Shown piece by piece: positions 15,760 through 61,898 of a stretch of 64,000 nucleotides of DNA (the first letter of the stretch is position 1; every line of letters begins with the position of its first letter). The notes under the pieces were generated by a model. That model made no database searches. It was not told the origin of the DNA and saw nothing but the letters and a program-made list of their open reading frames with translations. The position numbers and the translations under genes were made by a program. This DNA is from a virus. The stretch lies in the IMG/VR virus record IMGVR_UViG_3300045988_159436. One strand, given 5' to 3'.

Positions 15760-16776
15760 ATGAAAAGAAAAGGAAATTTATGGACTAAAATAATAGACAA
15801 AAGCAATTTATATTTGGCTTTTGAGAAAGCTAAAAGACATAAAAGTTGGCAAAGAAAGGTTAAAATTATAGAAGCAAATTTAGATTATTATATTGAAAAG
15901 TTACAAAATGATTTGATAACAGGTCAATATAAAACTGCTGAATATAAGTTAAAAACAATTTATGAGCCAAAGAAAAGAGATATTTATATTTTGCCATTTT
16001 ATCCAGATAGGATAGTTCATCACGCTATTATGAATGTTTTAGAGCCTATATGGGATAATAGATTTATTTATAATAGTTATGCTTGTCGAAAAAATAAAGG
16101 TCAACATAAAGGCAGTATAAAATGTATGGAATACACTAGAAAGTTTAAATATTGTTTGAAATGTGATATAAGTAAATTTTATCCTTCTATTAATCACAGG
16201 CTTCTAAAGAAAGTGATACGTAAAAAAATAAAATGTAAAAAGACTTTAAATTTATTAGATGAGATAATTGATAGTGTTGATACGCCTGTAAATGTTCCTA
16301 TAGGAAATTATTTAAGTCAGTGGTTTGGAAACTTATATTTAAATGAGTTAGATGTTTTTCTAAAGCAAGAGAATTGTGTAAAAAATTATTTAAGATATTG
16401 CGATGATTTTTTATTATTTTCTGATGATAAAACATATTTAAATAAAATGGCTAAAATAATAAATGAATATGTAGTTAATATTTTAGAATTAAAACTTAGC
16501 AAATGTGTTTTGTTTCCAACAGCACAAGGAGTTGATTTTTTAGGATATAGACATTTCCATGCTGGTTATGTTTTGGTAAGAAAATCAACAGCTAAAAGAA
16601 TGAAGCGTAGGATTAAAAGATTAAAATATGAATTATTAAAGAATAAAATAAGTCAAGATAAGGCTTTATCTGTTGTAGCAAGTTTATCTGGGGGGTTAAG
16701 ATGGGCTAATAGTTACAATTTAAAAATGTCTTTAGAGCTAGAATTATTAAAAAAGGAATTAGGAGGAAACTCTTAG
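15760..16776 (+). CDS. DGR reverse transcriptase
   Basis: 338 aa; motifs PIGNYLSQWFGNLYLNELD and YCDDFLLF (YxDD) typical of DGR RTs. Confidence 0.85.
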   Translation: MKRKGNLWTKIIDKSNLYLAFEKAKRHKSWQRKVKIIEANLDYYIEKLQNDLITGQYKTAEYKLKTIYEPKKRDIYILPFYPDRIVHHAIMNVLEPIWDNRFIYNSYACRKNKGQHKGSIKCMEYTRKFKYCLKCDISKFYPSINHRLLKKVIRKKIKCKKTLNLLDEIIDSVDTPVNVPIGNYLSQWFGNLYLNELDVFLKQENCVKNYLRYCDDFLLFSDDKTYLNKMAKIINEYVVNILELKLSKCVLFPTAQGVDFLGYRHFHAGYVLVRKSTAKRMKRRIKRLKYELLKNKISQDKALSVVASLSGGLRWANSYNLKMSLELELLKKELGGNS

Positions 16777-36862: not shown

Positions 36863-39386
36863 TTGTTTCATCAAAGATTCTTTAAATTAACTATTGTCAA
36901 TAAAGAGAATGTTGATAGATTTTTTGAGGAATATGAACGAGCGAAACAAATTTTCTTTGACTTTGAAACTTCTGGATTAGATGTAAGATATAAGGGGAAA
37001 GATTATGCAGTAGGATTAACAGTAGCCTTTGAAGATAGTGTCAGTAAGGAAGTATACTATATTCCTTTCAGACACTATTTTGAAGGTAGCTATATTGGTT
37101 GTGGGAGACTCGATTACCGTAAAAACACTGCGGTTTTTGATGATGCTAAAAATTTTCCTGATTTTTTACCAGAAAAGTTTTCAGGAGAATATTATAATAT
37201 GGATATTGTTGATTTTATGGAACGATTGAAGCCTTTAATGGAAAATGGCGGGAAAGAGTATATAGCCCATCATATTTCATTTGACTTACATTTATTTGCA
37301 AATGAAGGTGTAGATATAGTAAAAGTGTTTGAAACAAATACTTTTACTGATACACAAATAGCTGTACATACTTTAGATGAAGAACAAGAGAAGAATTTAG
37401 AAGCAGTAACTGAAACAATTTTCTCTGTAAAAAAATCTCATTTTAAAGATACTATTATGACAGTTACTAAAGAGGAAAAGAAACTTTTGGGATTAGCTTC
37501 TAATAGTAATGCTAGTTTTCAACACGTTCAGATTCCAATAGGAGCACAATATTCAGCAGAAGATGTATATTTTATGAAAGAAATGTATGAGCCAATTCTT
37601 AATGCGTTAAGAGAAGATGGTGGTTACGAATATTTTAGAGAAGTACGAATGCCATATATGAAAGTTTTGTGGAAAATGGAACGTAATGGAATCAAAGTTG
37701 ACATAGAAAAACTTGAAGGTATGATAAAATTAGCAGAAGAAAAATTGGAAGAATTAACATACAAAATATATGAAGTAGTAGGAGCTAAATTTAATATTAA
37801 CAGTGGTCAACAGTTATTTGAGATATTATATGGTTTTAAAAAGAAATTAAAGGATAAGAAAACAGGGGAATATAAAGAGTCTTTTAATGAAGATTTAGTA
37901 GCATTAAATTTTGGTTTTAAGCCTATCGCATGGACAGAGGGCGGGAAATCAAGAGATATGGTATTAAGAACACCAAAAACAGATAAAGATGCGCTAAAGA
38001 AATTATTAAGACAAACTCCTAAAAGAGAAGATGGGCATAAATTAATTAAACTTCTACAAGATTATTTTAAATTAACAAAATTGTATACAGCATTTATGCT
38101 GGGTATAAAAGAAAAAATATATTGTGATGGAAAAGTACATCCAAGCTTCAACCAAAATGGTTGTCTTGTAGCAAACACTTTAATTCCTACAGATAGGGGA
38201 TTGTTCCGCATTCAGGATTTAGTAACAGATGCTTTAGTTGATGGTGAATTTGTTTCTAAAACCTATACGCTATTAAATCGAAATTTAGAACCTGAAAAGA
38301 CTTCCCATATAGTTAAATATGAGAATAGGAATACTATAAAAATTCGTACTGCTTTAGGGGTTACTATCGAAGGAACTGAAAATCACCCAATAATATGTAA
38401 TAAATATTCTTCAAAAGATTTATACCTTAATAGGAATAGTTGTCGTTTTAAAAATTTATATAAGAAAAAGGATGCTCAAATTTTCAAGCGTTTAGATGAG
38501 ATAAATACTGAAACTTATGTAGCAGTCCCTTATGGTTATAATTTTTTTGCTAAAGATTATCAGAAACTTGAATATGAATATGTTGCAATGCGTAGTGGAT
38601 TTAAGCAAGTTAAATTACCAGAAATTTTAGATGAAGATGTGGCAGAGTTTATGGGGATGTATTATGCAGATGGGTGTTTATCAGACACAAATGGTACTTT
38701 TACTATTTGCTTTACTAATGGAGATTCCTGTGTAATAAATCGTATACAAGAATTGTCTTTAAGACTTTTTGGAATAAAAGCACATGTTCGTGACTGTCAT
38801 CCTCATAGAAATTCTTTGGATATTAGAATTAGTGCTAAAAGACTTGCTAGTATTGAGAAAGCTTTTCAGCTTAAAAGAGGATGCACAAACAAAGTTATTC
38901 CTGATATTATTTTACAGTCCCCAAGAAGTGTTGTAATAGCTTTCATAAAAGGAATGACATTAGATAGTTATTTTGTAGAAGAATCTAATAAAAAACAGCT
39001 AAGATTTACTGTTTCAAATGAGCAAAGTCTTTTTCAACTTCAAACATTGCTATTGAATTTAGGTATTATTGGTGGGGCAAGACATCTCAATACTTATACT
39101 GGAAATGTTTATATGCTAACATTAACTAATGGAGAATATTTAAAGTTTAGAGATATCGTAGGATTTGTTCAAAAGAAAAAGTATAAAGATTTTGAGTATC
39201 AAAGAATTTCTGGTCAATATTTAGTAGATGAAGGTAATTCATTAATTTGGGTAAAGGTTAAAGAAATAGATAAAGGAAGGGCAGATGTTTATGACTTTAC
39301 TCTACCCGAAACACATAGTTTTATTTCAAATGGGTTTATTAGTCATAATACATCATCATTTAGGCTAAGTTGTTCTGACCCGAACT
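36863..39386 (+). CDS. polA: DNA polymerase I (family A) exon 1: 3'-5' exo plus N-terminal pol region, interrupted by intein
   Basis: Exo I FDFETSGLD; region ..SFNQNG[intein]TSSFRLSCSDPN aligns with Taq RFNQTATATGRLSSSDPN; the ORF stops right after DPN. Confidence 0.75.
38162..39349 (+). mobile_element. intein with LAGLIDADG homing endonuclease domain (in frame in polA)
   Basis: starts CLVANTLIPTDRG (block A), ends FISHN followed by Thr (+1); internal MGMYYADGCLSD and IAFIKGMTLDSYF LAGLIDADG-like motifs; 396 aa. Confidence 0.75.
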
Positions 39387-39652
39387 AAACAGATGGTTCG
39401 CTAGGCAAGAAATTCCTAGAAAAATTAACTGCTCTAACTCGGTGAAACTCCACCAATAAAAGGACAACACCGAACTAAGTTAGTTAGCGATAACTAAAAA
39501 GTGTAACGACTAGAGAAAGTAGGCTATATTAGTCGAAATCTCCACGAATGGGCAGAGCCTAAACCGAAAGGCATGGCTAAGATATAGTCTGAACTCCGTA
39601 CAATGGTAAAGACGGAGAAGCGGGGATAAAGAGCCCCGTGATAACATAATTG
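39387..39652 (+). ncRNA. group I intron 1 in polA (boundaries about +-5 nt)
   Basis: no ORF; S-element AAGAUAUAGUCU at 39579-39590; ends ..gataacataattG; the flanking exons restore ..SDPN|(F)QQLPKP.. Confidence 0.55.
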
Positions 39653-39987
39653 TTCAACAGCTTCCTAAGCCTTTAGAAGAGCCTAAAGATGGTGAAGATA
39701 GAAGTTACTATGATTTTTGGATACAATTTGAAATAAGAAGTTTAATGATAGCTGACAATGAAGACGAAGTAATTGTTGCGGCAGATTATCATGCTCTGGA
39801 AAAGTTTTTAACAGCGCATTTTTCAAAAGACCCATTGTTGATTAAAATGCTAAAAGAGAAACTTGACCCACATGGAACAGTAGCAACAATTATTTTTCCA
39901 GAATTAGCAGATGCAGACCCAAATTCAATTAAGAAGTTAGCACCACATAAAAGAAATGTGGCTAAGACTGTAGGTTTCGCTCAAATC
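39653..39987 (+). CDS. polA: DNA polymerase I exon 2 (motif A to motif B)
   Basis: VIVAADYHALEKFLTAHF (motif A DYSQIELR-like) ... KRNVAKTVGFAQ (motif B). Confidence 0.6.
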
Positions 39988-40185
39988 TAGGGTGAAGTAA
40001 AATCCCTCTCAAAACGGTGAAAGCCTAACAGGTTAATACCGTGCCGAACTCTGTGAAAACAGCGGTGTAGAGACTTATAATGTATCGGCTATGTTAAAAC
40101 ATAAATCAATCGAATACATTTAATGGGGGATAGGAGCAAGCTCCTAAAGGTATAGTCCGACACTCTTGGCAACAGGAGAAAACAG
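39988..40185 (+). ncRNA. group I intron 2 in polA (boundaries uncertain by about +-10 nt)
   Basis: R-like gtgtagagactta 40065-40077; S-element AAGGUAUAGUCCGAC 40147-40161 (compare Tetrahymena AAGAUAUAGUCGGAC); no ORF. Confidence 0.5.
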
Positions 40186-40549
40186 AATGGTAGATTATGG
40201 CGGTTCAAAAATAGCGGTAGCAAGAAATCTAGAGATAGATGAAAAGACCGCACAAGAATATATAGATAGATATTTTGAAGGTTTTGCAGGGTTAAGAAAA
40301 TACGATAGAGATTTAATTCAATTTGCTAGAAAGAATGGTTATATAGAAACATTATTTTCTGGGCATAAACGTCACTTGTGGGGGATAAATTCCCAAGATG
40401 GCAGAACACGTTCATATTATGAGCGGCTAGCAGTTAATTCAAAATCACAAGGGGCGGCGGCAGATTGCACAACATTAGCACAGATAGATGTGGATAATGA
40501 TGTAGTATTAAAATCTATTGGTGCAAGACAAATACTTAATGTACACGAT
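40186..40549 (+). CDS. polA: DNA polymerase I exon 3 (motif B tail to motif C)
   Basis: DYGGSKIAVARNLEIDEKTAQEYIDRYF aligns with YGMSAHRLSQELAIPYEEAQAFIERYF; ends ..ILNVHD. Confidence 0.6.
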
Positions 40550-40866
40550 AAACTTTAGTCAAATAACTTGTCGTGTTTAAACTCTTCGATATGCTGGAAC
40601 GCAAAAATACAGTATTACCAAAGAGTGACAATATACTGTATATCACGAAAGTGTGTAGCCAATCAGCAGGGAGGAAATGAGAGCATTTCACCCTCACAGA
40701 CTAACAAAAGCATAGAATAGTAGGAACTGCACATTACTACTATTTGAGAAGTGAGTAGAGTACGGCTTTGTTGAGATACAAAGTGGGTTGACATCCTTAA
40801 ATGGAAGCGGGGAGGCATAGTGCAGATGTATGATATAGTCGAGTGTGTTTTTAAGCATACGTTATG
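40550..40866 (+). ncRNA. group I intron 3 in polA
   Basis: Q AAUCAGCAGG exact at 40661-40670; R UCACAGACUAAC 40694-40705; S GAUAUAGUCG 40832-40841; 5' splice after U40549, omega-G 40866; the junction gives NVHD|EIVMVCPKK matching QVHDELVLEAPKE. Confidence 0.65.
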
Positions 40867-41022
40867 GAGATAGTCATGGTTTGTCCTAAAAAGTTTGCAG
40901 AATTATGCAAGCAGAGATTAACTTTTCATATGGAAAATTGTTTACCAAGCAGGGGTATAAATTTAACAATTCCATTAGAAGCCGTAGGAGATATAGGTAG
41001 AACTTATAGTGAAGCAAAATAA
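40867..41022 (+). CDS. polA: DNA polymerase I exon 4 (C-terminal 51 aa)
   Basis: EIVMVCPKKFAELCKQ...TIPLEAVGDIGRTYSEAK matches the Pol I C-terminus ..VPLEVEVGIGxxWxxAK. Confidence 0.6.
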   Translation, partial: EIVMVCPKKFAELCKQRLTFHMENCLPSRGINLTIPLEAVGDIGRTYSEAK

Positions 41023-45921: not shown

Positions 45922-46053
45922 ATGGAAAAAACAGCTTTATTTAAAGTTTCTTCAACAAGTAATGCAAAAAGTGTAGCAGGCTCAATCAGCCACACATTGA
46001 AAGGTGACGGAGATACAGCACCAAAAGATGTAGTATTGCAAGCAATCGGAGCT
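45922..46053 (+). CDS. SpoVS-like protein exon 1
   Basis: ATG after aaaggaaagaggaag; MEKTALFKVSSTSNAKSVAGSISHTL...VVLQAIGA resembles the SpoVS N-terminal half; the continuous ORF would stop at 46062. Confidence 0.5.
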
Positions 46054-46329
46054 AAAGGCTAATTGGCTCCCATCACAGTGATGTGATGAAAAATAGCGGG
46101 GAAGAAAACTGGAAAGCTGAGAAGCTAATCAGATTGGAAGGTTTAGTTTAAAAGCTAAACCACAAGCAGAGCATAGACAGTGAACCTCTTAGAGAATATA
46201 ATCTGTCCACGAGTCCCCGCCGCTTATAACGAGGTTATTCGAGCGTTATAAGATGAAAAGATATGCCGAACTAACAGGAAACGAACTGTTAGAAGTAGAG
46301 GATAAAAAGCCTTTACGATAACATAATTG
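46054..46329 (+). ncRNA. intron in SpoVS-like gene (probable group I; class unverified)
   Basis: no ORF; 3' end cgataacataattG is identical over 13 nt to the polA intron 1 3' end; Q-like aatcagattgg; the exon junction restores QAIGA|SAINQTCKAIAISRG. Confidence 0.45.
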
Positions 46330-46482
46330 AGTGCCATTAATCAAACATGTAAAGCTATTGCTATTTCAAGAGGGCATTTAGCTGTGGCAGGATACGATGT
46401 AGTTACTAGAATTGGATTTGACGTTGTTGAAATTGATGGTGAAGAACGTACAATTTTGAAATTCTTCGTATCATTGAGATAA
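46330..46482 (+). CDS. SpoVS-like protein exon 2
   Basis: SAINQTCKAIAISRGHLAVAGYDVVTRIGFDVVEIDGEERTILKFFVSLR matches the SpoVS C-terminal half. Confidence 0.5.
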   Translation, partial: SAINQTCKAIAISRGHLAVAGYDVVTRIGFDVVEIDGEERTILKFFVSLR

Positions 46483-46548: not shown

Positions 46549-46932
46549 ATGAACCAAGAACTCACATTAGCAGTTAGCAGTAGTTTTGAAGCCGCTCATC
46601 ATTTAGTAAATCCAACAGCATTTAATGAAAAATGCCTTAAACTACATGGACATTCTTATAAGTATACTATCTTTTTAAAAGGAGAAGTACAAGATGGTGG
46701 TATGGTAGAAGATTTTGGAGCTATAAAGAGATATATTATAAATGAAATAACAAAGCTCTATGACCATTCAGATTTAAACAGATTTTTTTATAATCCTACC
46801 GCAGAAATGTTAGTTTTAGATATGGCATGGAGAGTAGAAGCCTTAATAGAGGATAATAGTTTAAAAGTTAAACTGACCAAAATAGAATTAGCCGAAACGG
46901 ATAATAATAGGGTAATATGGGAGTCACAGTAA
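46549..46932 (+). CDS. queD: 6-carboxy-5,6,7,8-tetrahydropterin synthase
   Basis: CLKLHGHSY motif (CxxxHGH), about 125 aa. Confidence 0.7.
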   Translation: MNQELTLAVSSSFEAAHHLVNPTAFNEKCLKLHGHSYKYTIFLKGEVQDGGMVEDFGAIKRYIINEITKLYDHSDLNRFFYNPTAEMLVLDMAWRVEALIEDNSLKVKLTKIELAETDNNRVIWESQ

Positions 46933-47589
46933 ATGTATATTACAGAGATTTTTAGTAGTATTCAAGGTGAGGGGAAGTATACAGGCTATCCTACTACCTT
47001 TGTTAGATTATTTGGTTGCAATTTATTTGAGATGTCTCCTAGCTATGCTTGTAAGTATTGTGATGAGAAACATTCAATGACAGGCAAACGAATAAAGATG
47101 CATTTAGGATTGGTAATGGATAAGATAGGGGCATTAGGAAATAAATATGTTTGTATTACAGGTGGAGAACCTTTAATGCAGGAAGAAACTATGCCTTTAG
47201 TTTATGAATTATTGTATAATGATTATATTGTTACAGTAGAAACAAATGGGACAATTCCTATAGAGCATTGTGAATATGTAAGAAGTTATTCATATTGTAT
47301 GGATGTTAAATTACCTAGTAGCAGAACAGTATTAGCACCAGATTTAAATTGTTATAAGAATTTAGGAGAGCTAAAAGTAAATGATGAAGTTAAGTTTGTT
47401 ATTTCTAATATCCATGATTATGAAGAAGCAAAACGGATTTTAAAGAAATATAAAACTAAAGCAAGCCTTATTTTTTCTCCTGTGAATTGTGATTTAGAAT
47501 TAGCAAGAGAAATAATGGGTTGGTTAATGAAAGATAAACTAAAAGCTAAATTAGGATTACAAATACATAAATTATTAGAAATTAAATAG
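46933..47589 (+). CDS. queE: 7-carboxy-7-deazaguanine synthase (radical SAM)
   Basis: IFSSIQGEGKYTGYPTTFVRLFGCNL N-terminus typical of QueE. Confidence 0.65.
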   Translation: MYITEIFSSIQGEGKYTGYPTTFVRLFGCNLFEMSPSYACKYCDEKHSMTGKRIKMHLGLVMDKIGALGNKYVCITGGEPLMQEETMPLVYELLYNDYIVTVETNGTIPIEHCEYVRSYSYCMDVKLPSSRTVLAPDLNCYKNLGELKVNDEVKFVISNIHDYEEAKRILKKYKTKASLIFSPVNCDLELAREIMGWLMKDKLKAKLGLQIHKLLEIK

Positions 47590-47599
47590 TAAAAATCTG

Positions 47600-47628
47600 T
47601 TGACAAATATGGATTTTTATGGTATAAT
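47600..47628 (+). promoter_or_regulatory. consensus promoter
   Basis: TTGACA-17-TGgTATAAT. Confidence 0.6.
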
Positions 47629-47639
47629 GGGAGTATAGT

Positions 47640-47918
47640 ATGAAGATAGAAAATGTTAGAATATATGGTTTGCCAGAGAGCTTAATAGCCTCTGGCTATC
47701 CTATGTTATCTACAGAATTAAATGAAGAGGAATTTTTAAAGGAAGTAGAAGCGACAGAAAAAATAATTAAAAATAAATCTGGTAGTAATAAACATATAGA
47801 AAGAGGTATTAGATTAGGCAATTCTCCTTTAGGTAGCGGACATAATTGTGCTTTAAAGGGAATTACAGTACAATTTGATTTAACTTTGCCTCAGTATACA
47901 TGGCAACAGTTACAAAGA
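47640..47918 (+). CDS. thyX: Thy1/ThyX-like (flavin-dependent thymidylate synthase family) exon 1 (3' boundary approximate)
   Basis: GNSPLGSGH..ITVQFDLTLPQYTWQQLQR aligns with ThyX HETPFEH..FTFHVKAPIFVARQWFR; the continuous ORF stops at 47972. Confidence 0.4.
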
Positions 47919-49206
47919 TATCACTATATTGATTTTATAAGCTCAATGGGCGTTTTAGGCAGTAATGCCTAAAATTATCAGACGGAGAACCTGTAAATGC
48001 AGGGTGTCAGAAATGGCTAACGGTTCAGAACTAGAGATAGTTTATGAGTAAGGGAAGCTAAACCTTTCGAGGCAAGCTAATACCGTGCTGTATAAATTTG
48101 AAAAGGAAATTATTATGGAAAAAATTGAAGATATGATTATTTTAGAGTATTTACCACTTCAAAAAGTAAGAGTGAGATGCTCTATTTGTGGAAAAGAAAG
48201 AATAGTATCTTTAAGAAATTTAAGGAGAAAAGGCAATAGACATACTATAAATACTTGTAAAGAATCTTTTGTTAATTTACTAATAGGAAAAGAGCTAGGC
48301 GATTATGTTGTTTCTGGTTCTGCTCCTAAAAATAAAATAGAATTAAGCTGTAAGATATGTGGGCATAAAACGTCTTGTTATGAAAGTGGGCTAACCCCAA
48401 GATTCCATAATGGTAGCACTTGTAAAGAAGATTTTGCTAAAAGTTTTCTAGGAAAATCTACAGATGCTTTTAAGATAGTTGATTATTTTAAAAAGGGACA
48501 ACAGTATCAATTAGTGTTAGAATGTTTATCCTGTGCAACACGAAGGAATATACCTATTAATAAAATAGATACATATTCTTTTTCTCATAAAGATTGTTTT
48601 TATTTTCTTCCTAATGATAACATAAAGAAAACTATAAGTTATCGTTGGGAGGGGATAAATCAACGTGTTTTTAATCCTAACAATAATAACTATACGTATT
48701 ATGGAGCAAGAGGTGTGCAGAATAAATTCAAAGATAAAGTTGATTTCTATTATCATTTTTATCCCGAATTATCTAAAAATTCTTCTCTAACTATAGATAG
48801 AATAGATGTTAATGGGGATTATAGCAAAGAAAATACAAGACTAATTACAATAAAAGAACAGCAGTCTAATAAAAGAGAAACTCATTATTTTATAGCACAA
48901 GCTGGTGATAAATGCTATGTTTCTAATAACACTATGGAATTTGGAAAAAGATTTGGCATAAATGGTAGAAGCATAGGAAATTGTTTGAGAGGACAATCTA
49001 AAACTGCTGGTGGCTTTAAATTCAAAGAAATTACAAAAGAGCAATTTGAGAATTTATGTAGTGTAACGACTAAAGGGATAATTGTTATCCAAGAGGTTGT
49101 AGGTGAAATTCCTACGCTGTAGCACCGTCCCCCTGAAAAGGGTGAAGAGATAGTCTATTCCCTTCAAATACGCCGAAAGGCGGGGTATAAAGCAATGTCA
49201 AAAATG
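47919..49206 (+). mobile_element. group I intron with HNH homing endonuclease ORF (boundaries approximate)
   Basis: R-like GUUCAGAACUAGAG 48023-48036, S-like GAGAUAGUCUAUUCC about 49147-49160, omega-G 49206; shares uaauaccgugc with polA intron 2; the junction ..LQR|HRIT.. recreates the ThyX RHR motif. Confidence 0.45.
48115..49122 (+). CDS. HNH homing endonuclease (intron-encoded)
   Basis: YRWEGINQRVFNPNNNNYTYYGARGV...IDRIDVNGDYSKENTRLIT matches the phage HNH_3 pattern (W..M..RC.NP....Y..YGGRGI / DRIDNNGNYEPGNCRW); ATG after aaggaaa. Confidence 0.6.
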   Translation: MEKIEDMIILEYLPLQKVRVRCSICGKERIVSLRNLRRKGNRHTINTCKESFVNLLIGKELGDYVVSGSAPKNKIELSCKICGHKTSCYESGLTPRFHNGSTCKEDFAKSFLGKSTDAFKIVDYFKKGQQYQLVLECLSCATRRNIPINKIDTYSFSHKDCFYFLPNDNIKKTISYRWEGINQRVFNPNNNNYTYYGARGVQNKFKDKVDFYYHFYPELSKNSSLTIDRIDVNGDYSKENTRLITIKEQQSNKRETHYFIAQAGDKCYVSNNTMEFGKRFGINGRSIGNCLRGQSKTAGGFKFKEITKEQFENLCSVTTKGIIVIQEVVGEIPTL

Positions 49207-49500
49207 CATCGTATTACAATGCTTGATTTAGATAAACATTGTCCTTTAGTGGATAATGAATTATTAAAAATTTCACAAAGATATGTAAATGCTTATAAAA
49301 AAGGTGAGATTGGCATAGATGCTTGTTTATCTAATATTCCTATGGGATTACAGATGACAGCACGAATGACTACAAACTATTTACAACTATTATCTATTTA
49401 TCATCAGAGAAATACCCATCGTTCAGATGAATGGAAAGAATTTTGTTCTTGGGTAAAAACACTGCCTATGTTTAAAGAGTTGTGTTTAAAAGGAGAATAA
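49207..49500 (+). CDS. thyX: Thy1/ThyX-like exon 2
   Basis: HRIT..NELLKISQRY (RHR..S..RY motif region) and ACLSNIPMGLQMTARMTTNYLQLL...DEWK resemble the ThyX C-terminal half. Confidence 0.4.
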   Translation, partial: HRITMLDLDKHCPLVDNELLKISQRYVNAYKKGEIGIDACLSNIPMGLQMTARMTTNYLQLLSIYHQRNTHRSDEWKEFCSWVKTLPMFKELCLKGE

Positions 49501-49504
49501 ATGT

Positions 49505-49924
49505 ATGGATTTAAACTCTGTTAATATAACAGCTACACAAGTAGCTAAAAATTATTTTTCAGCTTATGTTGAAAATGGCTTTATTTATTCTTATAGTGTA
49601 TATGGTGAAAGACAACAAGTTGGTGTTACAAATGATGCTTATACTGCTTTACAGAAGACAGCGCAAGAAGCTTTAGATAAAGCTGAAAAGTATTATCAAC
49701 GATTAGTAGAGTTAGGAGATATAGTACCTCCTAAAACATCAGAAGAAACTATTGCAGAATTGATGTCTGTAGTTAGTGAATTACGTAATGAGATAAGAGA
49801 AATGAAGACAGTTCAACATAAGGGGGATTCAAATGAATCTATTAAGTATACTGAAAGCTCTGGGAATAAAAATTTCCCCACAAATAGAGGAAGCTATAGC
49901 AAAGGCACAGCAACTGGCAAATAA
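49505..49924 (+). CDS. hypothetical protein
   Basis: ORF; its 3' end overlaps the next ORF. Confidence 0.35.
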   Translation: MDLNSVNITATQVAKNYFSAYVENGFIYSYSVYGERQQVGVTNDAYTALQKTAQEALDKAEKYYQRLVELGDIVPPKTSEETIAELMSVVSELRNEIREMKTVQHKGDSNESIKYTESSGNKNFPTNRGSYSKGTATGK

Positions 49925-50183
49925 CTATGGCAATTCTAAAGAGGGCTTTATAAAAGCAGTTAATGAAAATGGTGGAACAGAATCTTTAACAAAAGCCTTA
50001 GCAACATTAGATAATCCAAATGTTGCTAGAGTTTTAACAGCGTTAGGGCACCCGCCAGAGTCTATAAAACAAGCAGTTAATAGTCTTGGAGCAATAGCTC
50101 CTACGCCACGACAAACTCCTAATAATCAAAATATTTCTAATGAGATTAGGTCTTTTGAAGAAAGGCTTAAAAGATTAAAGTAG
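49833..50183 (+). CDS. hypothetical protein
   Basis: ATG after aagggggatt. Confidence 0.4.
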   Translation: MNLLSILKALGIKISPQIEEAIAKAQQLANNYGNSKEGFIKAVNENGGTESLTKALATLDNPNVARVLTALGHPPESIKQAVNSLGAIAPTPRQTPNNQNISNEIRSFEERLKRLK

Positions 50184-50220
50184 TAATGCTTTAGTTATAT
50201 ATTTTAAGGAGTGATTTTAA

Positions 50221-50718
50221 GTGGATGAAAAAATGAATTGGGGCTTTATCATTCTTATCTTCTTGTTCTTTATGATTTTTGGAGGATGGGGTAATGGTGG
50301 TCTGTTTGGTGGCAGAGGTGGAGAATGCGCTGGTTGTGGTGTAGTTTCTAATTGTCAAGTAGAAAAACAGCAAATCATTGATACAGCTAGAACTCAATAC
50401 ATGATTGAAAACACTGCAAAACAAACTCAAGAACAGGCAATGGCTTTAGCTAATGCTCTTGGAACTAAAATTGATTTCTATGAATATCAAAATCTGCGTG
50501 ACCAACTGGCACAAGAAAGAACTAAAAATGTGGTTCTGGAAAATCGTGTCTATAGTGATGCTAAATTTAATGCACTGGAAAGACAGAACGAAGCTATGTT
50601 TGGCGTATTAAAATCTGAAATTGCAGACTTGTCTTGCAATGTTCCGAAACGTCCTCCATACTATGCACAAGGTTTTGTAACTTGTGGTTCTCCAATTCCT
50701 AATGGATGTTGCAACTAA
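50221..50718 (+). CDS. membrane-anchored Gly/Cys-rich coiled-coil protein with atypical codon usage
   Basis: GTG 10 nt after aaggag; N-terminal TM; CTG/CGT-rich codons unlike the rest of the window. Confidence 0.4.
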   Translation: MDEKMNWGFIILIFLFFMIFGGWGNGGLFGGRGGECAGCGVVSNCQVEKQQIIDTARTQYMIENTAKQTQEQAMALANALGTKIDFYEYQNLRDQLAQERTKNVVLENRVYSDAKFNALERQNEAMFGVLKSEIADLSCNVPKRPPYYAQGFVTCGSPIPNGCCN

Positions 50719-50748
50719 TCTTTTGAAGTTCCGCTTATTTGCGTGATT

Positions 50749-50781
50749 GAGGGGTAGGCGGTATGCCTACCTCTCTTTTTA
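50749..50781 (+). terminator. rho-independent terminator
   Basis: gaggggtaggc-ggtat-gcctacctctc then T5. Confidence 0.6.
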
Positions 50782-50800
50782 TATTAAGGAGCGATTATTA

Positions 50801-51181
50801 ATGAATTGTAATTGTACAAATATTTTAGCCTCTACTTCTATTACATCAGAAGCTAATGATATTGATATCGTGGTTCCAAGCAGAACTATTTATAATGGTC
50901 AATGTGAGAAGTTATTAATACAACAGGCAATTCCTGTAAGTACAAATGGAAATGCAGTTCCTGTAAAATTAACTATTGGCGATGCTTCTGTTTTATTATT
51001 AGACCGTTGTGGAAACGCTGTTTTTTCTGACCAATTAAAATCAAGAAAAATCTATGATATCAGATTTCACACAACAGCTTTAACAGCTACTATTCTGTGT
51101 TCTATTCCAAACTGTACTAGCGGAGTAAATACTGTATTTAATCCTGCAACACCTCCTTCTGAGCCTGTTCCAAGTAATTAA
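50801..51181 (+). CDS. Cys-rich hypothetical protein
   Basis: ATG after ttaaggagcg (the track start 50747 overlaps the terminator). Confidence 0.4.
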   Translation: MNCNCTNILASTSITSEANDIDIVVPSRTIYNGQCEKLLIQQAIPVSTNGNAVPVKLTIGDASVLLLDRCGNAVFSDQLKSRKIYDIRFHTTALTATILCSIPNCTSGVNTVFNPATPPSEPVPSN

Positions 51182-51199
51182 TAGACAGGAGGATTAGCT

Positions 51200-51430
51200 A
51201 TGAAACTAGATTTAGTGTCCTTAATGTTAGGTTTTGGTGTTGGTTATCTAGCATTGACAGAATCAGGTAGAAAACAGTTAATAAAAGTAAGCAATCAAGG
51301 TGGGGAATTAGTAAATAAGCTTACAGATAAGTATATAGGCGAGCCTATCAGTAAAGCATTAGGGGGAATAGAAAGTGTCACACATGAAGAAGTCGTTAAT
51401 GCATCTGACGAAGAAGCAAAACTGGATTGA
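51200..51430 (+). CDS. hypothetical protein (N-terminal TM)
   Basis: RBS caggagg. Confidence 0.4.
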   Translation: MKLDLVSLMLGFGVGYLALTESGRKQLIKVSNQGGELVNKLTDKYIGEPISKALGGIESVTHEEVVNASDEEAKLD

Positions 51431-53272: not shown

Positions 53273-53881
53273 ATGGATAATTGCGAATTTTATTTATTAT
53301 ATAGCGGTGGGTATGATAGCACTGTGTTGCTTTATGATTTTATTGATAAATTACCTAATAAATTGACGGTAATACATATTGTTACTCAGTATAATCAAGA
53401 AGAAACAAAAGCGGCAAGAAAAATAATTGAATTAGTAAAAGATAAAATTCTTAACTATATTGAATTAGAAATGCCTGTTTACAAAACAGAAATAGAATAC
53501 ATTCCTTATAGAAATGCTCAATTTATATTAAGAGCACTTTCAACCTTGACAATTAAAGCAAGATGTGCTATAATATTATTAGGGTTGATAAAGGTAGAGG
53601 AACCTTTCCCTGATTGCACACAATATTGGTTAAAAACAATGGAGAAATTAGTTCAAGTAGAAAATCCTCATATTGGATTAGAGGCACCTTATATCAATAA
53701 TACTAAAGATGAAATTTATACCGTAGGATGCAAGTTTAAGGTTCCTTTAAGAAATACTTTTAGTTGTAACTTTCCTGTAGATGGTGCAGAATGCGGGGAA
53801 TGTGGAAACTGTAAATGGAAAGCAAAACATAAATATCCTAATTATTTTAGAGTTATAGAAGGAGGTAAAAACAATGTTTAA
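53273..53881 (+). CDS. queC: 7-cyano-7-deazaguanine synthase
   Basis: PP-loop LYSGGYDS; C-terminal Cys cluster CNFPVDGAECGECGNC. Confidence 0.65.
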   Translation: MDNCEFYLLYSGGYDSTVLLYDFIDKLPNKLTVIHIVTQYNQEETKAARKIIELVKDKILNYIELEMPVYKTEIEYIPYRNAQFILRALSTLTIKARCAIILLGLIKVEEPFPDCTQYWLKTMEKLVQVENPHIGLEAPYINNTKDEIYTVGCKFKVPLRNTFSCNFPVDGAECGECGNCKWKAKHKYPNYFRVIEGGKNNV

Positions 53882-54074
53882 AATTATTAATGGTAAGGGA
53901 ACAGGTTCTAACACGCAAAAGAGTGCAGTGAATACCTCCCCACAAGTAAAGATTACTAGCCCAGCAACAAGAAGAAGTTTATCTTGGCTTAGAAGGGTGC
54001 AAACAAGTTTAACTCCAAGAACAAAAAAAGCTTTGGATTGGTTAGAAGCCAATAGTGTTAGATTACCTAAATAA
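53874..54074 (+). CDS. hypothetical basic protein
   Basis: ORF. Confidence 0.3.
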   Translation: MFKIINGKGTGSNTQKSAVNTSPQVKITSPATRRSLSWLRRVQTSLTPRTKKALDWLEANSVRLPK

Positions 54075-54089
54075 TAGGAGAATTAGTTA

Positions 54090-55931
54090 ATGAAAAATGG
54101 ATATACGTTATTTCTTTCTGGCGTTGAACCAGAAGAAAATTTCTATACTGCAATAGACGTTACTTCTAGTCTATTGCAGTCTTATTGGTATATAAAGCGG
54201 CGTGGAAAAGATAAAATTGTAGAACGTTTTGATAAAGTTAAGAAGAACTCTTTGTTAATTGATAGTGGAGCACATACCTTTCTCACTTTAGCAGAATATC
54301 AAGATAAGACAGTAGATTATTGGGAAGAGTATATAAAAGGGTATATAGCTTTTGTAAGAAAACATAGAGAAAAAGTATTTGCTTGTGTTGAAATGGATAT
54401 AGATACTTTAGTAGGAACAGAACAAGTAAATAAATGGAGAGAAGAATACTTTCATTCTTTAGAGGAAGAGGGCATTCCTGTTATTTATGTTTATCATGCA
54501 GAAAAAGGATTGGAAGAGTGGGAAAGAATGTGTAAAGCATATCCCTATGTAGGATTCTCTTATAATGAATTTGAAGATGCTATTTTAATTGATAAATTAT
54601 TTGAAATAGCAATGGAATATAAAACTAAAGTACATGGTTTTGCAGTATCGGGGTATAGGGAATTATTAAAACATGAGTATTATACAAGTGACAGTACAAG
54701 CTGGATTACAGGAGCTCAATATGGAGAATTAAACTATTTTGAAGGTGGAAAATTAAAGCGGTTAACAAAAGAGAAATGGAAAAATGAATATTATGCAAAA
54801 ATACTTGATTTATGCACAAGTAAAAAGTTACTAGAAGCAGAGGCTCCTTATGAATTAATGCGTATTAGTGCTTTAAGCTATAAGAAATTAGAAGAGCATG
54901 TAAATGATATATTTAGAGGTAAAAGATATTGGGTTGGAAGAAAGGAAGTGTCTAAAGTAGCGAGTAAGGAAAATTTACCGCCAGTAGAATGGTTTTCAAC
55001 TGATATGGAAGATTGGCAAGAATGGGCACAGAAATTAAATATAGATACTAACCTTCCTGATGAAGCAGGTAAATCATTAGTTGTTGCCTGTTACAATTTT
55101 GTGACAGATAATCCTATTATAAATGAGTATCCTCTTGAAGAGTTAATTGATTTATGTGGGCTTTTTGGTGATAAGAAGTCAAATACTCTTACCAAGTGCC
55201 GAAAAGCCCTTAAAGAGCACTTTACAGCTCTCTTAAAGGGCAGTATGGATTTATCCACTTTGACAGAAGAAGAAGTAGAAGAGAAAAAAAATGTAGCTCC
55301 AAAAGAGCGGGAAGAGTATGTTCAAGAAAAAGAGTATGTAGAATGTACTGTTAGCAAGGAAGAGTGTCAAGGTTTATTAAAAGGATTATTAACTTCTGGT
55401 GTGACAGATGAAGCAGAGAAAGCTTTAATTGAACAGGGAATAGAGCCTATTTATGATGAGAATGGAAATATTAAAGCAGGTATTAAACGAATAAAGAAAA
55501 GAAAATCTTTAAGTTCAAGTGTGATGCCAGAGTTAAGTTGCAATATTTGTACTAAAGCACGGAGATGTCCTTTATATGAAGAAGGAATGCTTTGTGCTTA
55601 TAATAAAATGTTTAAGCAATTTGATACAAGAAATCCCGAAGATGTAGTAGATGCTATGAGCAGTATTGCAAATTTAAGTTTAGAAAGATTATCAAGGGCT
55701 GTAACATTTGAAAAGTTAGATGGTGGCTTAAATACTAAAGAAGTAACAGAGACAATGGCAGAAGCATGGAAATATCTTGAAAAGATACAAGAAATTCAAA
55801 CAAAGAGTGATAAAGTTATAGCAGAGCGTAGAGTTGTAACTTCTTCTAATGGCGATGTAGAAGTAAGAGAAAGTGTAACAGGAAATCCGCAAGGTTTATT
55901 GTCTGAGATTCTAAAAACAAAAAAAAGTTGA
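54090..55931 (+). CDS. dpdA: DpdA-like (tRNA-guanine transglycosylase family) DNA 7-deazaguanine transglycosylase with C-terminal extension
   Basis: LLIDSGAHTFLTL resembles TGT ILTDSGGFQVFSL; genomic association with queD/E/C. Confidence 0.4.
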   Translation: MKNGYTLFLSGVEPEENFYTAIDVTSSLLQSYWYIKRRGKDKIVERFDKVKKNSLLIDSGAHTFLTLAEYQDKTVDYWEEYIKGYIAFVRKHREKVFACVEMDIDTLVGTEQVNKWREEYFHSLEEEGIPVIYVYHAEKGLEEWERMCKAYPYVGFSYNEFEDAILIDKLFEIAMEYKTKVHGFAVSGYRELLKHEYYTSDSTSWITGAQYGELNYFEGGKLKRLTKEKWKNEYYAKILDLCTSKKLLEAEAPYELMRISALSYKKLEEHVNDIFRGKRYWVGRKEVSKVASKENLPPVEWFSTDMEDWQEWAQKLNIDTNLPDEAGKSLVVACYNFVTDNPIINEYPLEELIDLCGLFGDKKSNTLTKCRKALKEHFTALLKGSMDLSTLTEEEVEEKKNVAPKEREEYVQEKEYVECTVSKEECQGLLKGLLTSGVTDEAEKALIEQGIEPIYDENGNIKAGIKRIKKRKSLSSSVMPELSCNICTKARRCPLYEEGMLCAYNKMFKQFDTRNPEDVVDAMSSIANLSLERLSRAVTFEKLDGGLNTKEVTETMAEAWKYLEKIQEIQTKSDKVIAERRVVTSSNGDVEVRESVTGNPQGLLSEILKTKKS

Positions 55932-60725: not shown

Positions 60726-61898
60726 ATGTTAAATTGCAAAATTTGTGGTAATGAAATTAGTGGAACTTATACAATTTATCAAAAAGACGGAGTAGAATAT
60801 CCAGCACATATTGAATGCGTTGAAGAAAATAAGCAACATTGTGATGAGTGCAATAAATTTTTTGATAGAGAAGATTTAAAAACTACAACATTAGGAAACC
60901 ATTATTGCCCAGATTGTTTGTCTGAAAAAACTGTAGTTTGTGGAAAATGTGGTAAACACGTAGAAAATGCACCATTGAAAAGAGTAAATAGTGTATCTTA
61001 TTGTCAAGAATGTTTTGAACAGAAATGGGTATATTGTGCAAAATGTGGTAAAAGGGTTTTAAGAAGTAGAGCAAAAAATTTAAATAATACACATTATTGC
61101 GCTTCATGTGCTAGTTCTGTTGTTAAGGTAGAAAATTATAGTTACAAACCTACCCCTATATTTTGTGGTGTAGATAGTTCTCGTTATTTTGGTATTGAAG
61201 TCGAAACTGAGGGCAGAGAAAATAATCTTTATGCGGAAGAAATTATTGGAGATTCAAAAATTTTCTATGCAAAACATGATGGCAGTTTAAATGACGGAAT
61301 TGAATTTGTAAGTCATCCTTGCACTCTTAACTATTGGAGAGAGGAATCCAAGCTTGATGAATTTTGCAAAAGGGCGATTGGTTTAGGGTTTAATTCTCAT
61401 AAAACTACTTCTTGTGGATTGCATGTTCATATTACTAAATCTACAGTAGAAAGGGAAGCTTTTGAAAAAGTGCTTCTGTTTTTGAGTAATAACTGGGATG
61501 ATGTGGTGAAATTTACCCGCCGCAAAAGTTCCAGCATTAATAGATGGGCGGCTAATAATTTAGGGGATGCGCCAATGATTAAAACTTGTACTCTTGCACA
61601 AAAAATGAAATTAGTAAAAGAGTATTCTTCTGGCAGTCGTTATGTAGCAGTAAATGAAACATCTAAAACATATGAATTTCGTATTTTTAGGGGAACTTTA
61701 AAACCTGAAACTATTTTAGCTTGTATTGAGTTTTGCGATGCTCTTATCAATTTATGTGCTAGTTTGCCTTTTGCAAACATTGAAACAGCTAATTTTAATA
61801 CTTTAATGGAATTTGCAAAACCTAAAGGATGCTATAAAGAGCTTGTAGAATATTGGGAAACTCGAACAATGAAGAAAAAGGATGTTGTTCTTGGATAA
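60726..61898 (+). CDS. zinc-ribbon-fused amidoligase (glutamine synthetase-like COOH-NH2 ligase family)
   Basis: four CxxC..CxxC ribbons at the N-terminus; YFGIEVETEG, HDGSLNDGIEFVSHP, GLHVHIT motifs; adjacent to the GATase paralogs. Confidence 0.45.
   Translation: MLNCKICGNEISGTYTIYQKDGVEYPAHIECVEENKQHCDECNKFFDREDLKTTTLGNHYCPDCLSEKTVVCGKCGKHVENAPLKRVNSVSYCQECFEQKWVYCAKCGKRVLRSRAKNLNNTHYCASCASSVVKVENYSYKPTPIFCGVDSSRYFGIEVETEGRENNLYAEEIIGDSKIFYAKHDGSLNDGIEFVSHPCTLNYWREESKLDEFCKRAIGLGFNSHKTTSCGLHVHITKSTVEREAFEKVLLFLSNNWDDVVKFTRRKSSSINRWAANNLGDAPMIKTCTLAQKMKLVKEYSSGSRYVAVNETSKTYEFRIFRGTLKPETILACIEFCDALINLCASLPFANIETANFNTLMEFAKPKGCYKELVEYWETRTMKKKDVVLG

Follow-up and report, generated by a model that had tools for sequence, protein, structure and literature searches.

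The present work concerns a stretch of viral DNA of 64,000 nucleotides (IMG/VR record IMGVR_UViG_3300045988_159436), referred to below as the window, and within it a gene at 47640-49500 which is interrupted by a long insert. The insert, which is 1249 nt long (47944-49192), is very probably a mobile group I intron. It carries a gene for an endonuclease-like protein resembling I-HmuI and lies in the most conserved motif of a gene that encodes a protein folded like ThyX, the flavin-dependent thymidylate synthase. The gene is split, the position of the split is fixed to the nucleotide, the RNA of the insert has a structure which is conserved and which covaries among orthologues, the insert is present in one phage and missing from another that is 98% identical, and the modelled fold of the host protein is that of ThyX. 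The arrangement is an ordinary one, in that it belongs to a well-known kind of element. The exons, the intron with all of its structural elements, the endonuclease gene and the promoter described below all lie on the plus strand.

The split gene and its exact junction

The region contains three open reading frames (ORFs) on the same strand, at 47640-47972 (110 amino acids), 48115-49122 (335 amino acids) and 49195-49500 (101 amino acids). A first-pass annotation, made by a model from the sequence alone, had listed these ORFs correctly and had taken the outer two for the halves of one gene, and this second claim is borne out by the existence of uninterrupted homologues in phages: a tblastn search with the joined halves found single-ORF homologues of 186-221 amino acids in Clostridium phage XP41-N3, C. 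difficile phage phiCD211 and Fusobacterium phage Fnu1, with identities of 33-36% at coverages of 96-98%. A 99%-identical allele which has no intron was found in a large protein search, in the form of a 203-amino acid protein (P0001, with 150 member sequences) which contains DFISSMSKMHRIT and is equal to the predicted spliced product except at three residues. P0001 is encoded by contig L004 (ENA ERZ1304470), which runs collinear with the window at 96-98% identity and from which the insert is precisely missing. When the region was compared with GenBank phages by megablast, no match was found.

Alignment with the uninterrupted homologues demonstrates that a family motif, RYHxxDxxSSQSxMHRI, runs across the break, which moves the 5' splice site about 25 nt downstream, and the 3' site 14 nt upstream, of where the first-pass annotation had put them. 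The sequence CAATG is present at both borders of the intron, and exon 1 is collinear with L004 through 47948; the junction is assigned to U47943 and C49193 because this is the sole choice with a U at position -1 and a G at the end of the intron. Exon 1 (47640-47943) therefore comprises codons 1-101 and the first base of codon 102, ending in U47943, and exon 2 (49193-49500) comprises the remainder of codon 102 through to the stop codon and is collinear with L004. The last base of the intron, the omega-G, is G49192, which is the only G that fits both the U at -1 and the sequence of the intron-less allele. The predicted ligated RNA reads ..AUAAGCU-CAAUGUCA.. at the junction, i.e. AGCU is joined to CAAUG, and the predicted spliced product of 203 amino acids reads ..QRYHYIDFISS-MSKMHRIT.. 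/ ..QRYHYIDFISSMSKMHRIT...

These results bear directly on the version of the split gene that was originally proposed, in which a canonical ThyX gene is interrupted by an intron of 1288 nt at 47919-49206, and in which joining LQR (ending at 47918) to HR (starting at 49207) restores the catalytic RHR motif. The evidence that could be offered for that version is the score of the joined exons against the Pfam family Thy1 (PF02511), since the LQR/HR junction lifts the score just over the threshold (25.9 bits against a cut-off of 24.8). This score is an artefact of the artificial junction: the true spliced product attains only 16.5 bits, and P0001 16.3 bits, both below the cut-off. The LQR/HR junction also drops 13 conserved residues, and RYH..SS(Q/M)S(K/T)MH is the sequence found at the site in the intron-less allele and in every homologue, so that the mature protein has RYH in place of the supposed RHR. 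The LQR/HR version is refuted by P0001 and L004, and its remaining probability is practically nil. The general outline of the earlier proposal, a gene split by a group I intron with an HNH-related homing-endonuclease gene, is retained here, while its junction, its RHR motif, its intron length and (as described below) its R element are replaced.

The exons of the window differ from those of L004 at 21 of 612 nt and in only three residues, which indicates purifying selection. One of the differences lies close to the intron site: the Ser codon at 49198-49200, 6-8 nt downstream of the site, is TCA in the allele with the intron and AGC in L004 (3376-3378), so that all three of its positions are changed. 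This difference may be a mark of co-conversion, or it may be a variant of the target site.

Other classes of insert were considered for 47944-49192. A group II intron, an intein and a transposon were ruled out, given that neither a reverse transcriptase nor a domain V is present, that the insert is out of frame and that it has no terminal repeats.

Structure and covariation of the intron RNA

Six orthologous introns occupy the same site, namely those of the window and of contigs L032, L035, L036, L037 and L038, in host genes which share about 35-55% identity. In each of the five contigs a diverged ThyX-like gene is broken at the same codon (..VSS|(Q/M/T)S(K/T)MH..), and a relative of the endonuclease (45-53% identity) lies between its halves. 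Covariation in the proposed secondary structure was measured on a MAFFT alignment of the six introns from which the ORFs had been deleted, and was compared with two sets of controls, consisting of 500 shuffled alignments and of alignments slid by 1-3 columns. Standard pairs occupy 97.2% of the cells in the observed alignment, compared with 82.1% after shuffling and 33-46% after sliding; 27 of 59 pairs are changed on both sides, compared with 15.1 in the shuffled and 1-5 in the slid controls; and the covariation score is 0.53, compared with 0.21 in the shuffled alignments (none of the 500 reaches the observed value) and 0.04-0.10 in the slid ones. Compensatory changes back P4, P5, P6, P7.1, P7.2, P8 and P9, and the alignment is compatible with P3 and P7.

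Beginning at the 5' end, the sequence UGGGC (47947-47951) is a tentative internal guide sequence, in which GGC would pair with GCU of exon 1 to form P1, through the U47943-G47949 wobble followed by a C-G and a G-C pair, and in which UG would pair with the CA of exon 2 to form P10. The arrangement AGCU|..UGGGCG is kept in all six orthologues, and the 3' exon starts with CA in five of them and with CU in L037; no covariation is present in this part of the structure. The P2 hairpin (UUUUAGGCA GUAA UGCCUAAAA, 47953-47974) has compensatory changes among the orthologues in 8 of its 9 pairs, and a P2.1-like hairpin (CCUG UAAAUG CAGG, 47990-48003) in 3 of its 4, the latter covarying in the wider intron family as well. 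The putative 5' strand of P3, GUGU (48004-48007), would pair with 49122-49125. The 5' strand of P4, ACGGU (48020-48024), lies within the conserved GCUAACGGU and pairs with 48082-48086, in agreement with minimum free energy folding; this long-range helix includes an A-U pair which becomes U-A in three of the six orthologues. The P5 domain (48025-48078) contains the hairpins UCAGAACUA GAGA UAGUUUAUGA and AGCU..CCU UUCG AGG..AGCU, which are backed by compensatory changes and by folding. It is followed by the Q element AAUACCGUGC (48079-48088; J5/4 and the 3' strand of P4), which occurs in most members of the intron family, in some of them with single-base variants, as well as in polA intron 2 of the window, and which in relatives aligns with the 3' strand of P4 in the Rfam model. 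That the insert and polA intron 2 have an 11-mer in common (UAAUACCGUGC, 48078-48088) had already been recognized in the first-pass annotation.

The 5' strand of P6 (48087-48099) pairs with 49050-49062 over 13 bp, and the loop that it closes holds most of the endonuclease ORF. P6 is found at the same place in all six orthologues, as a stem of 12-18 bp which differs in sequence and encloses the ORF; an earlier guess for this helix, UGCUGUA/UGUAGCA, was replaced by 48087-48099/49050-49062, which matches P6 in all of the orthologues. The true R element, GUGUAACGACUA (49061-49072), falls within the 3' end of the ORF, and the last five bases of it (GACUA, 49068-49072) form the 5' strand of P7; no member of the intron family departs from its ACGACUA core, and its GUGUA is nearly invariant. 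The segment at 48023-48036, which had been put forward as R, consists of the 3' part of the 5' strand of P4 together with P5, and lies between the two strands of P4. This assignment, and a P3 pairing UUAUC/GAUAG which had been built on it, were rejected because the family alignment puts the conserved R after the ORF.

Downstream of R are the hairpins P7.1 (49076-49090; 5 of 6 pairs compensatory, and present in the folds of the individual sequences) and P7.2 (49099-49115), which has a conserved loop, UGAAAUU, and a stem that covaries over 11 family members. The putative 3' strand of P3, GCACC (49122-49126), overlaps the last base of the stop codon of the ORF (UAG, 49120-49122), and although its pairing is tentative, its position is conserved as GAAGYRCC in the intron family. 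It is followed by the P8 hairpin (CCCU GAAA AGGG, 49131-49142), which has a counterpart of differing sequence in every family member, and by the S element (49144-49156), which comprises J8/7 (GAAGAGA) and the 3' strand of P7 (UAGUC, 49151-49155), and which aligns with the Rfam consensus for J8/7-P7 in L011, a contig whose intron has no ORF. The S-like element GAAGAGAUAGUCU of the first-pass annotation corresponds to this feature and is real. P9.0 and P9 (CCC..CGCC GAAA GGCG GGG, 49160-49185) complete the structure, with compensatory changes in 4 of 4 pairs of P9 and in 1 of 3 pairs of P9.0. The characteristic elements thus occur intact and in the order P (GCUAACGGU, 48016), Q (48079), R (49061) and S (49144). 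The presence of P7.1 and P7.2 between P7 and the 3' strand of P3 is the hallmark of subgroup IA, as in the T4 td intron; both hairpins covary, and the insert is classed as of the subgroup IA type.

The insert also belongs to a wider family of introns. A 19-mer, GAAGAGATAGTCTATTCCC (49144-49162), occurs in 20 IMG/VR contigs, of which three come from near-identical phages that share both the intron and the ORF; over the compared 3' half of the intron, these three have substitutions only in one hairpin loop. The remaining contigs carry different introns of one family, which share P (GCUAACGGU), Q (AAUACCGUGC), R (GUGUAACGACUA), two hairpins before GAAGYRCC, P8, S, a P9 closed by CCC/GGG and the 3' end GGGUAUAAAG; the corresponding elements of the window are at 48016, 48079, 49061, 49076-49115, 49122, 49131, 49144 and 49160-49192. 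Hairpins P7.1, P7.2, P8 and P9 of differing sequence are found at homologous places in all 11 distinct members. The ORF-less intron of L011 scores 49.2 bits (E 1e-11) against Rfam RF00028 (Intron_gpI) over the whole model, at a gathering threshold of 50, and the ORF-deleted intron of the window is 74% identical to it, about 15 standard deviations above shuffled controls.

Several observations weigh against the identification of the insert as a group I intron, or against its activity. The intron region, for which an Rfam search had been suggested as a check, yielded nothing when the whole window was searched at the gathering threshold, nothing when 47800-49400 was searched in E-value mode, and only 9.6 bits (E 3.6) for the 3' half of the intron. 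Group I membership thus rests on homology and covariation in place of a direct Rfam match. The Rfam null is nonetheless uninformative, because the ORF of about 950 nt in P6 splits the core of the intron, and because the three ORF-less polA introns in the window (21.8-40.5 bits on RF00028) and the L011 intron likewise fall below the gathering score. In addition, P1 is only 3-4 bp long, and the P1, P3 and P7 helices are tentative because P1 consists of GCU/GGC only, P3 has one-sided changes and one mismatch, and P7 is invariant and hence uninformative.

The short P1, the lack of an Rfam match in the window and the fact that splicing is read from the sequence could together suggest that the insertion is dead, either because the intron no longer splices or because the endonuclease gene has disrupted the host, which would make the ThyX-like gene a pseudogene. 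Against this, all of the core elements of the intron are intact and covary with those of the orthologues, the three near-identical viral contigs retain the same intron, both exons are open and differ from the intron-less allele by mostly synonymous changes (3 amino acids in 21 nt), and the split-gene arrangement has persisted in five diverged lineages. The pseudogene explanation is accordingly regarded as very improbable, and an intron which is still able to splice is preferred.

The endonuclease-like ORF

The ORF within the intron (48115-49122; 335 amino acids from its ATG) is preceded by a Shine-Dalgarno sequence, AAGGA, at 48103-48107, and its last 20 or so codons overlap the 3' strand of P6, R, P7.1 and P7.2. 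The protein resembles homing endonucleases in its domains, with Cys-rich beta modules in the N-terminal part, a central HNH-like DRID motif and a C-terminal helix-turn-helix like that of NUMOD proteins, and PHROG families annotated as HNH endonuclease match it at E 7e-20. A profile of 28 homologues was aligned with I-HmuI by hhalign with a probability of 73.5% (E 3e-5), residues 220-305 being matched with residues 64-170 of I-HmuI; the match spans LVVDHKDGNKDNN..NLRWVT..N, opposite LTIDRIDVNGDYS..NTRLIT..N in I-HmuI, as well as the C-terminal helix-turn-helix. I-HmuI is also the best fold match in the Protein Data Bank (PDB) for an AlphaFold2 (AF2) model of the protein (predicted local distance difference test score, pLDDT, of 89; Foldseek E 0.05, probability 0.99). 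A sequence search of the PDB gave nothing useful, and an NCBIfam search gave nothing.

In the closest homologues the C-terminal sequence V-T-T-K is conserved; its coding sequence, GUAACGACUAAA, is the R element, and the overlap between protein and ribozyme is therefore itself conserved. A homologue which is 51% identical to the endonuclease is found as a free-standing gene in L033 (2291-3996), and in L034 as well, where its start lies 3 nt beyond an uninterrupted ThyX-like gene and the genes for FolD and dUTPase come next; this ThyX-like gene is a distant member of the host family (hhalign probability 99.1%, E 1e-18). One endonuclease family is thus borne by introns in six genes and is free-standing in another.

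The first-pass annotation had called the protein an HNH_3-type enzyme, and this is not supported, since Pfam HNH, HNH_3 and HNH_5 have no match in the ORF at E values up to 1, and the Pfam model I-HmuI_NUMOD-like reaches only a sub-threshold 17.4 bits (cut-off 27). Arg229 aligns with the catalytic His75 of I-HmuI and is invariant in the 28 homologues, which have DRID in place of DH, and among which no His is invariant. The ORF is therefore probably related to HNH proteins in ancestry and architecture while failing at the defining catalytic residue. These results, which also tell against the overall interpretation, would be expected if the intron spliced and the ORF did not encode an active DNA endonuclease, being instead a relic, a maturase or a protein that only binds DNA, in which case the intron would be immobile today. 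On the other side, all 28 diverged homologues retain DRID, the YGxRG block and the N/Q/N residues without change, and the ORF is intact in every lineage, which argues for an activity that is under selection; and both the presence or absence of the intron in phages which are 98% identical and the occurrence of one endonuclease family in six introns and in a free-standing copy beside the same target gene are as active homing would produce. An inactive ORF is considered unlikely on balance, and the reading as an active homing endonuclease with a variant HNH site is retained as the more probable one. The candidate target, as judged by the site of insertion, is TTTTATAAGCT^CAATGAGCAAAATGCATCGG, at about position 3370 of the intron-less L004.

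The host protein

The signature motif of ThyX is RHRX7S, as quoted in PMC2826268. The host protein has R93-Y94-H95-X7-M103, most homologues have Q at the last position, and the signature therefore fails at three of its four positions. The earlier description of the gene as ThyX-like is thus correct at the level of the fold and does not extend to the signature or to Pfam Thy1, which the product matches below threshold; the SQRY motif on which that description had drawn is not conserved among family members. The uninterrupted phage homologues have no match to Pfam Thy1 at E < 0.01, and 11 of 38 family members match it at E <= 0.1, the best of them at E 6.8e-5. A profile search of the PDB with the ThyX-like family found no ThyX.

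The evidence for the fold comes from structural modelling. An AF2 model based on 38 sequences (pLDDT 94.7) was searched against the PDB with Foldseek, and the top 50 matches were all ThyX (E about 1e-6, probability 1.00, TM scores of 0.55-0.71, identities of 13-18%), among 146 matches at E <= 0.001; in BFVD, two uncharacterized viral proteins were matched first and ThyX proteins after them. In an hhalign alignment with the ThyX of T. maritima, TM0449, His68 corresponds to His53, Arg93 to Arg78, Tyr94 to His79 and His95 to Arg80, and N163 and R174 line up with N163 and R174 of TM0449 by position only. The distant member in L033 lacks the equivalent of Arg78. As judged by the model, the host gene encodes a ThyX-fold protein which is not a canonical ThyX.

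The spliced product belongs to phrog_6721, a family of unknown function (E 1.8e-49, residues 1-199 aligned with 8-215 of the 218 positions of the profile), and has at least 1200 relatives in a large protein collection. It probably acts in folate-linked pyrimidine deoxynucleotide metabolism, with synthesis of dTMP as a possible role; its neighbours FolD, thymidine kinase, dUTPase and NT5C in other phages point only indirectly to FAD binding and to CH2-THF-dependent methylation of dUMP. It is possible, if somewhat doubtful, that PHROG 6721 is not a thymidylate synthase and is instead an undescribed folate-linked enzyme of Firmicutes and Fusobacterium phages which modifies nucleotides; should that be so, the repeated invasion of SS(Q/M)SKMH by homing introns could be taken, with the same degree of reserve, to mark that motif as the functional core of the enzyme.

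Genomic context

A sigma-70-type consensus promoter (TTGACA, 17 nt, TGnTATAAT) lies just upstream of exon 1, at 47600-47628; it matches the hexamers at 12 of 12 positions and has an extended -10 element, and its function is putative. Directly upstream are the genes for QueD (46549-46932) and QueE (46933-47589), and in the window, L004, L029 and L032 the ThyX-like gene comes after QueD-QueE and before QueC and a DpdA-like gene. The earlier suggestion that the gene is tied to the 7-deazaguanine cluster holds for this phage lineage (L004, L029, L032) and not for other contexts: the gene lies between thymidine kinase and NT5C, with dUTPase nearby, in L030 and L031; beside FolD, with or without thymidine kinase or dUTPase, in L033, L034, L036 and L037; near ribonucleotide reductase in L028 and L035; and, in further cases, in recombination or replication modules. 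A special link to 7-deazaguanine is not supported, because the neighbours elsewhere are FolD, thymidine kinase, dUTPase and NT5C, and what recurs in the neighbourhoods is folate and pyrimidine deoxynucleotide metabolism rather than 7-deazaguanine in particular. Literature searches for a tie of ThyX-like genes to introns or to 7-deazaguanine clusters turned up nothing relevant.

Other features of the window were noted in passing. Genes for 7-deazaguanine modification of DNA are found at 46549-47589, 53273-55931 and 60726-61898 (QueD, QueE, QueC-like and DpdA-like), with an amidoligase-like protein further on; the DpdA-like transglycosylase, at 613 amino acids, exceeds its PHROG profile in length and may contain an insertion. 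The DNA polymerase I gene (36863-40990) is heavily interrupted, by an in-frame intein-like insert in the ORF at 36863-39388, seen in the translation only, and by the three ORF-less introns below the Rfam gathering score, at 39377-39608 (40.5 bits), 39954-40179 (38.4) and 40500-40862 (21.8). A SpoVS-like gene (45923-46482) is split by an ORF-less insertion of 276 nt (46054-46329) which is missing from the 98%-identical L004; its 5' exon ends in U46053, its last base is G46329 and its 3' end, gataacataattG, is similar to the one in polA intron 1. The insertion is probably a further group I intron, although an Rfam search of it gave nothing even at E <= 1. A segment of 1448 bp at 49801-51248, with ORFs at 49833-50183, 50221-50718 and 50747-51181, is also missing from the otherwise collinear L004. 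At 15760-16776, in what appears to be a structural-gene region, an ORF matches the reverse-transcriptase domain of Pfam RVT_1 (E 2.7e-17) and may be a diversity-generating retroelement.

Comparison with known systems

One close parallel is the td intron of phage T4, a group IA2 intron which interrupts the gene of the thymidylate synthase ThyA and carries the gene of I-TevI, a GIY-YIG endonuclease. Both are phage group I introns with P7.1 and P7.2 and with an ORF looped out from P6, both are inserted in a conserved region of a gene of thymidylate-synthase type, and the Q region of td, which is AAUCCCGUGC-like, is similar to the one described here. The systems differ in that the host protein of the window has the ThyX fold, which is unrelated to ThyA, in that the endonuclease is related to HNH and not to GIY-YIG proteins, and in that R, P7.1 and P7.2 of the ribozyme share their sequence with the 3' end of the endonuclease gene. 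I-HmuI (PDB 1U3E), a nicking enzyme from the DNA polymerase intron of Bacillus phage SPO1, is likewise encoded by a phage intron, and its HNH beta-beta-alpha motif followed by a C-terminal helix-turn-helix appears to correspond to residues 220-305 here, whereas the present ORF has in addition an N-terminal Cys-rich region of about 165 residues and a conserved YGxRG block, and has Arg in place of His75. TM0449 (PDB 1O26, PF02511) shares the fold of the host protein, which has RYH X7 (M/Q) where ThyX has RHRX7S.

The introns which share GAAGAGAUAGUCUAUUCCC (L008-L027, including the ORF-less L011) agree with the intron of the window in Q, R and S and in the layout of P7.1, P7.2, P8 and P9, and are found in other host genes, in L026 in one which resembles the terminase large subunit. 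Some members carry the ORF in P5 and others in P6, and the type of ORF differs from that of the window; the ORF of L026 looks like a GIY-YIG protein by its N-terminal sequence only. An Rfam search at E <= 0.01 of seven loci of this family detected none. The free-standing copies of the endonuclease beside the ThyX-like genes of L033 and L034 are reminiscent of the free-standing homing endonuclease associated with cyanophage psbA, while the copy in the window is inside an intron.

Proposed mechanism and implications

Under the interpretation favoured here, the gene would be transcribed, probably from the consensus promoter at 47600, and the intron RNA would fold into P1-P9 and excise itself by two guanosine-initiated transesterifications, with cleavage after U47943, which forms the U-G wobble with the guide UGGGC, and with ligation after the omega-G at 49192. 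The spliced mRNA would encode the protein of 203 amino acids, and the endonuclease would be translated from its own ribosome-binding site inside the P6 loop. The endonuclease would most likely cut or nick intron-less alleles near ..AAGCT^CAATGAGC.., and would thereby drive homing of the intron.

The practical consequence for annotation is that the locus would ordinarily appear as two hypothetical fragments and an 'HNH endonuclease', while the correct description is a ThyX-fold protein of 203 amino acids, an intron and a homing-endonuclease gene. Because the intron family escapes the Rfam gathering score, introns of this sort probably go under-annotated in sequences from phages and metagenomes. 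A host gene with the ThyX fold adds to the classic tie between phage group I introns and genes of nucleotide metabolism, and the endonuclease provides a case in which one family is both intron-borne and free-standing beside the same target. The large uncharacterized ThyX-like family and the His-to-Arg variant of the HNH motif would both be worthwhile targets for biochemical study.

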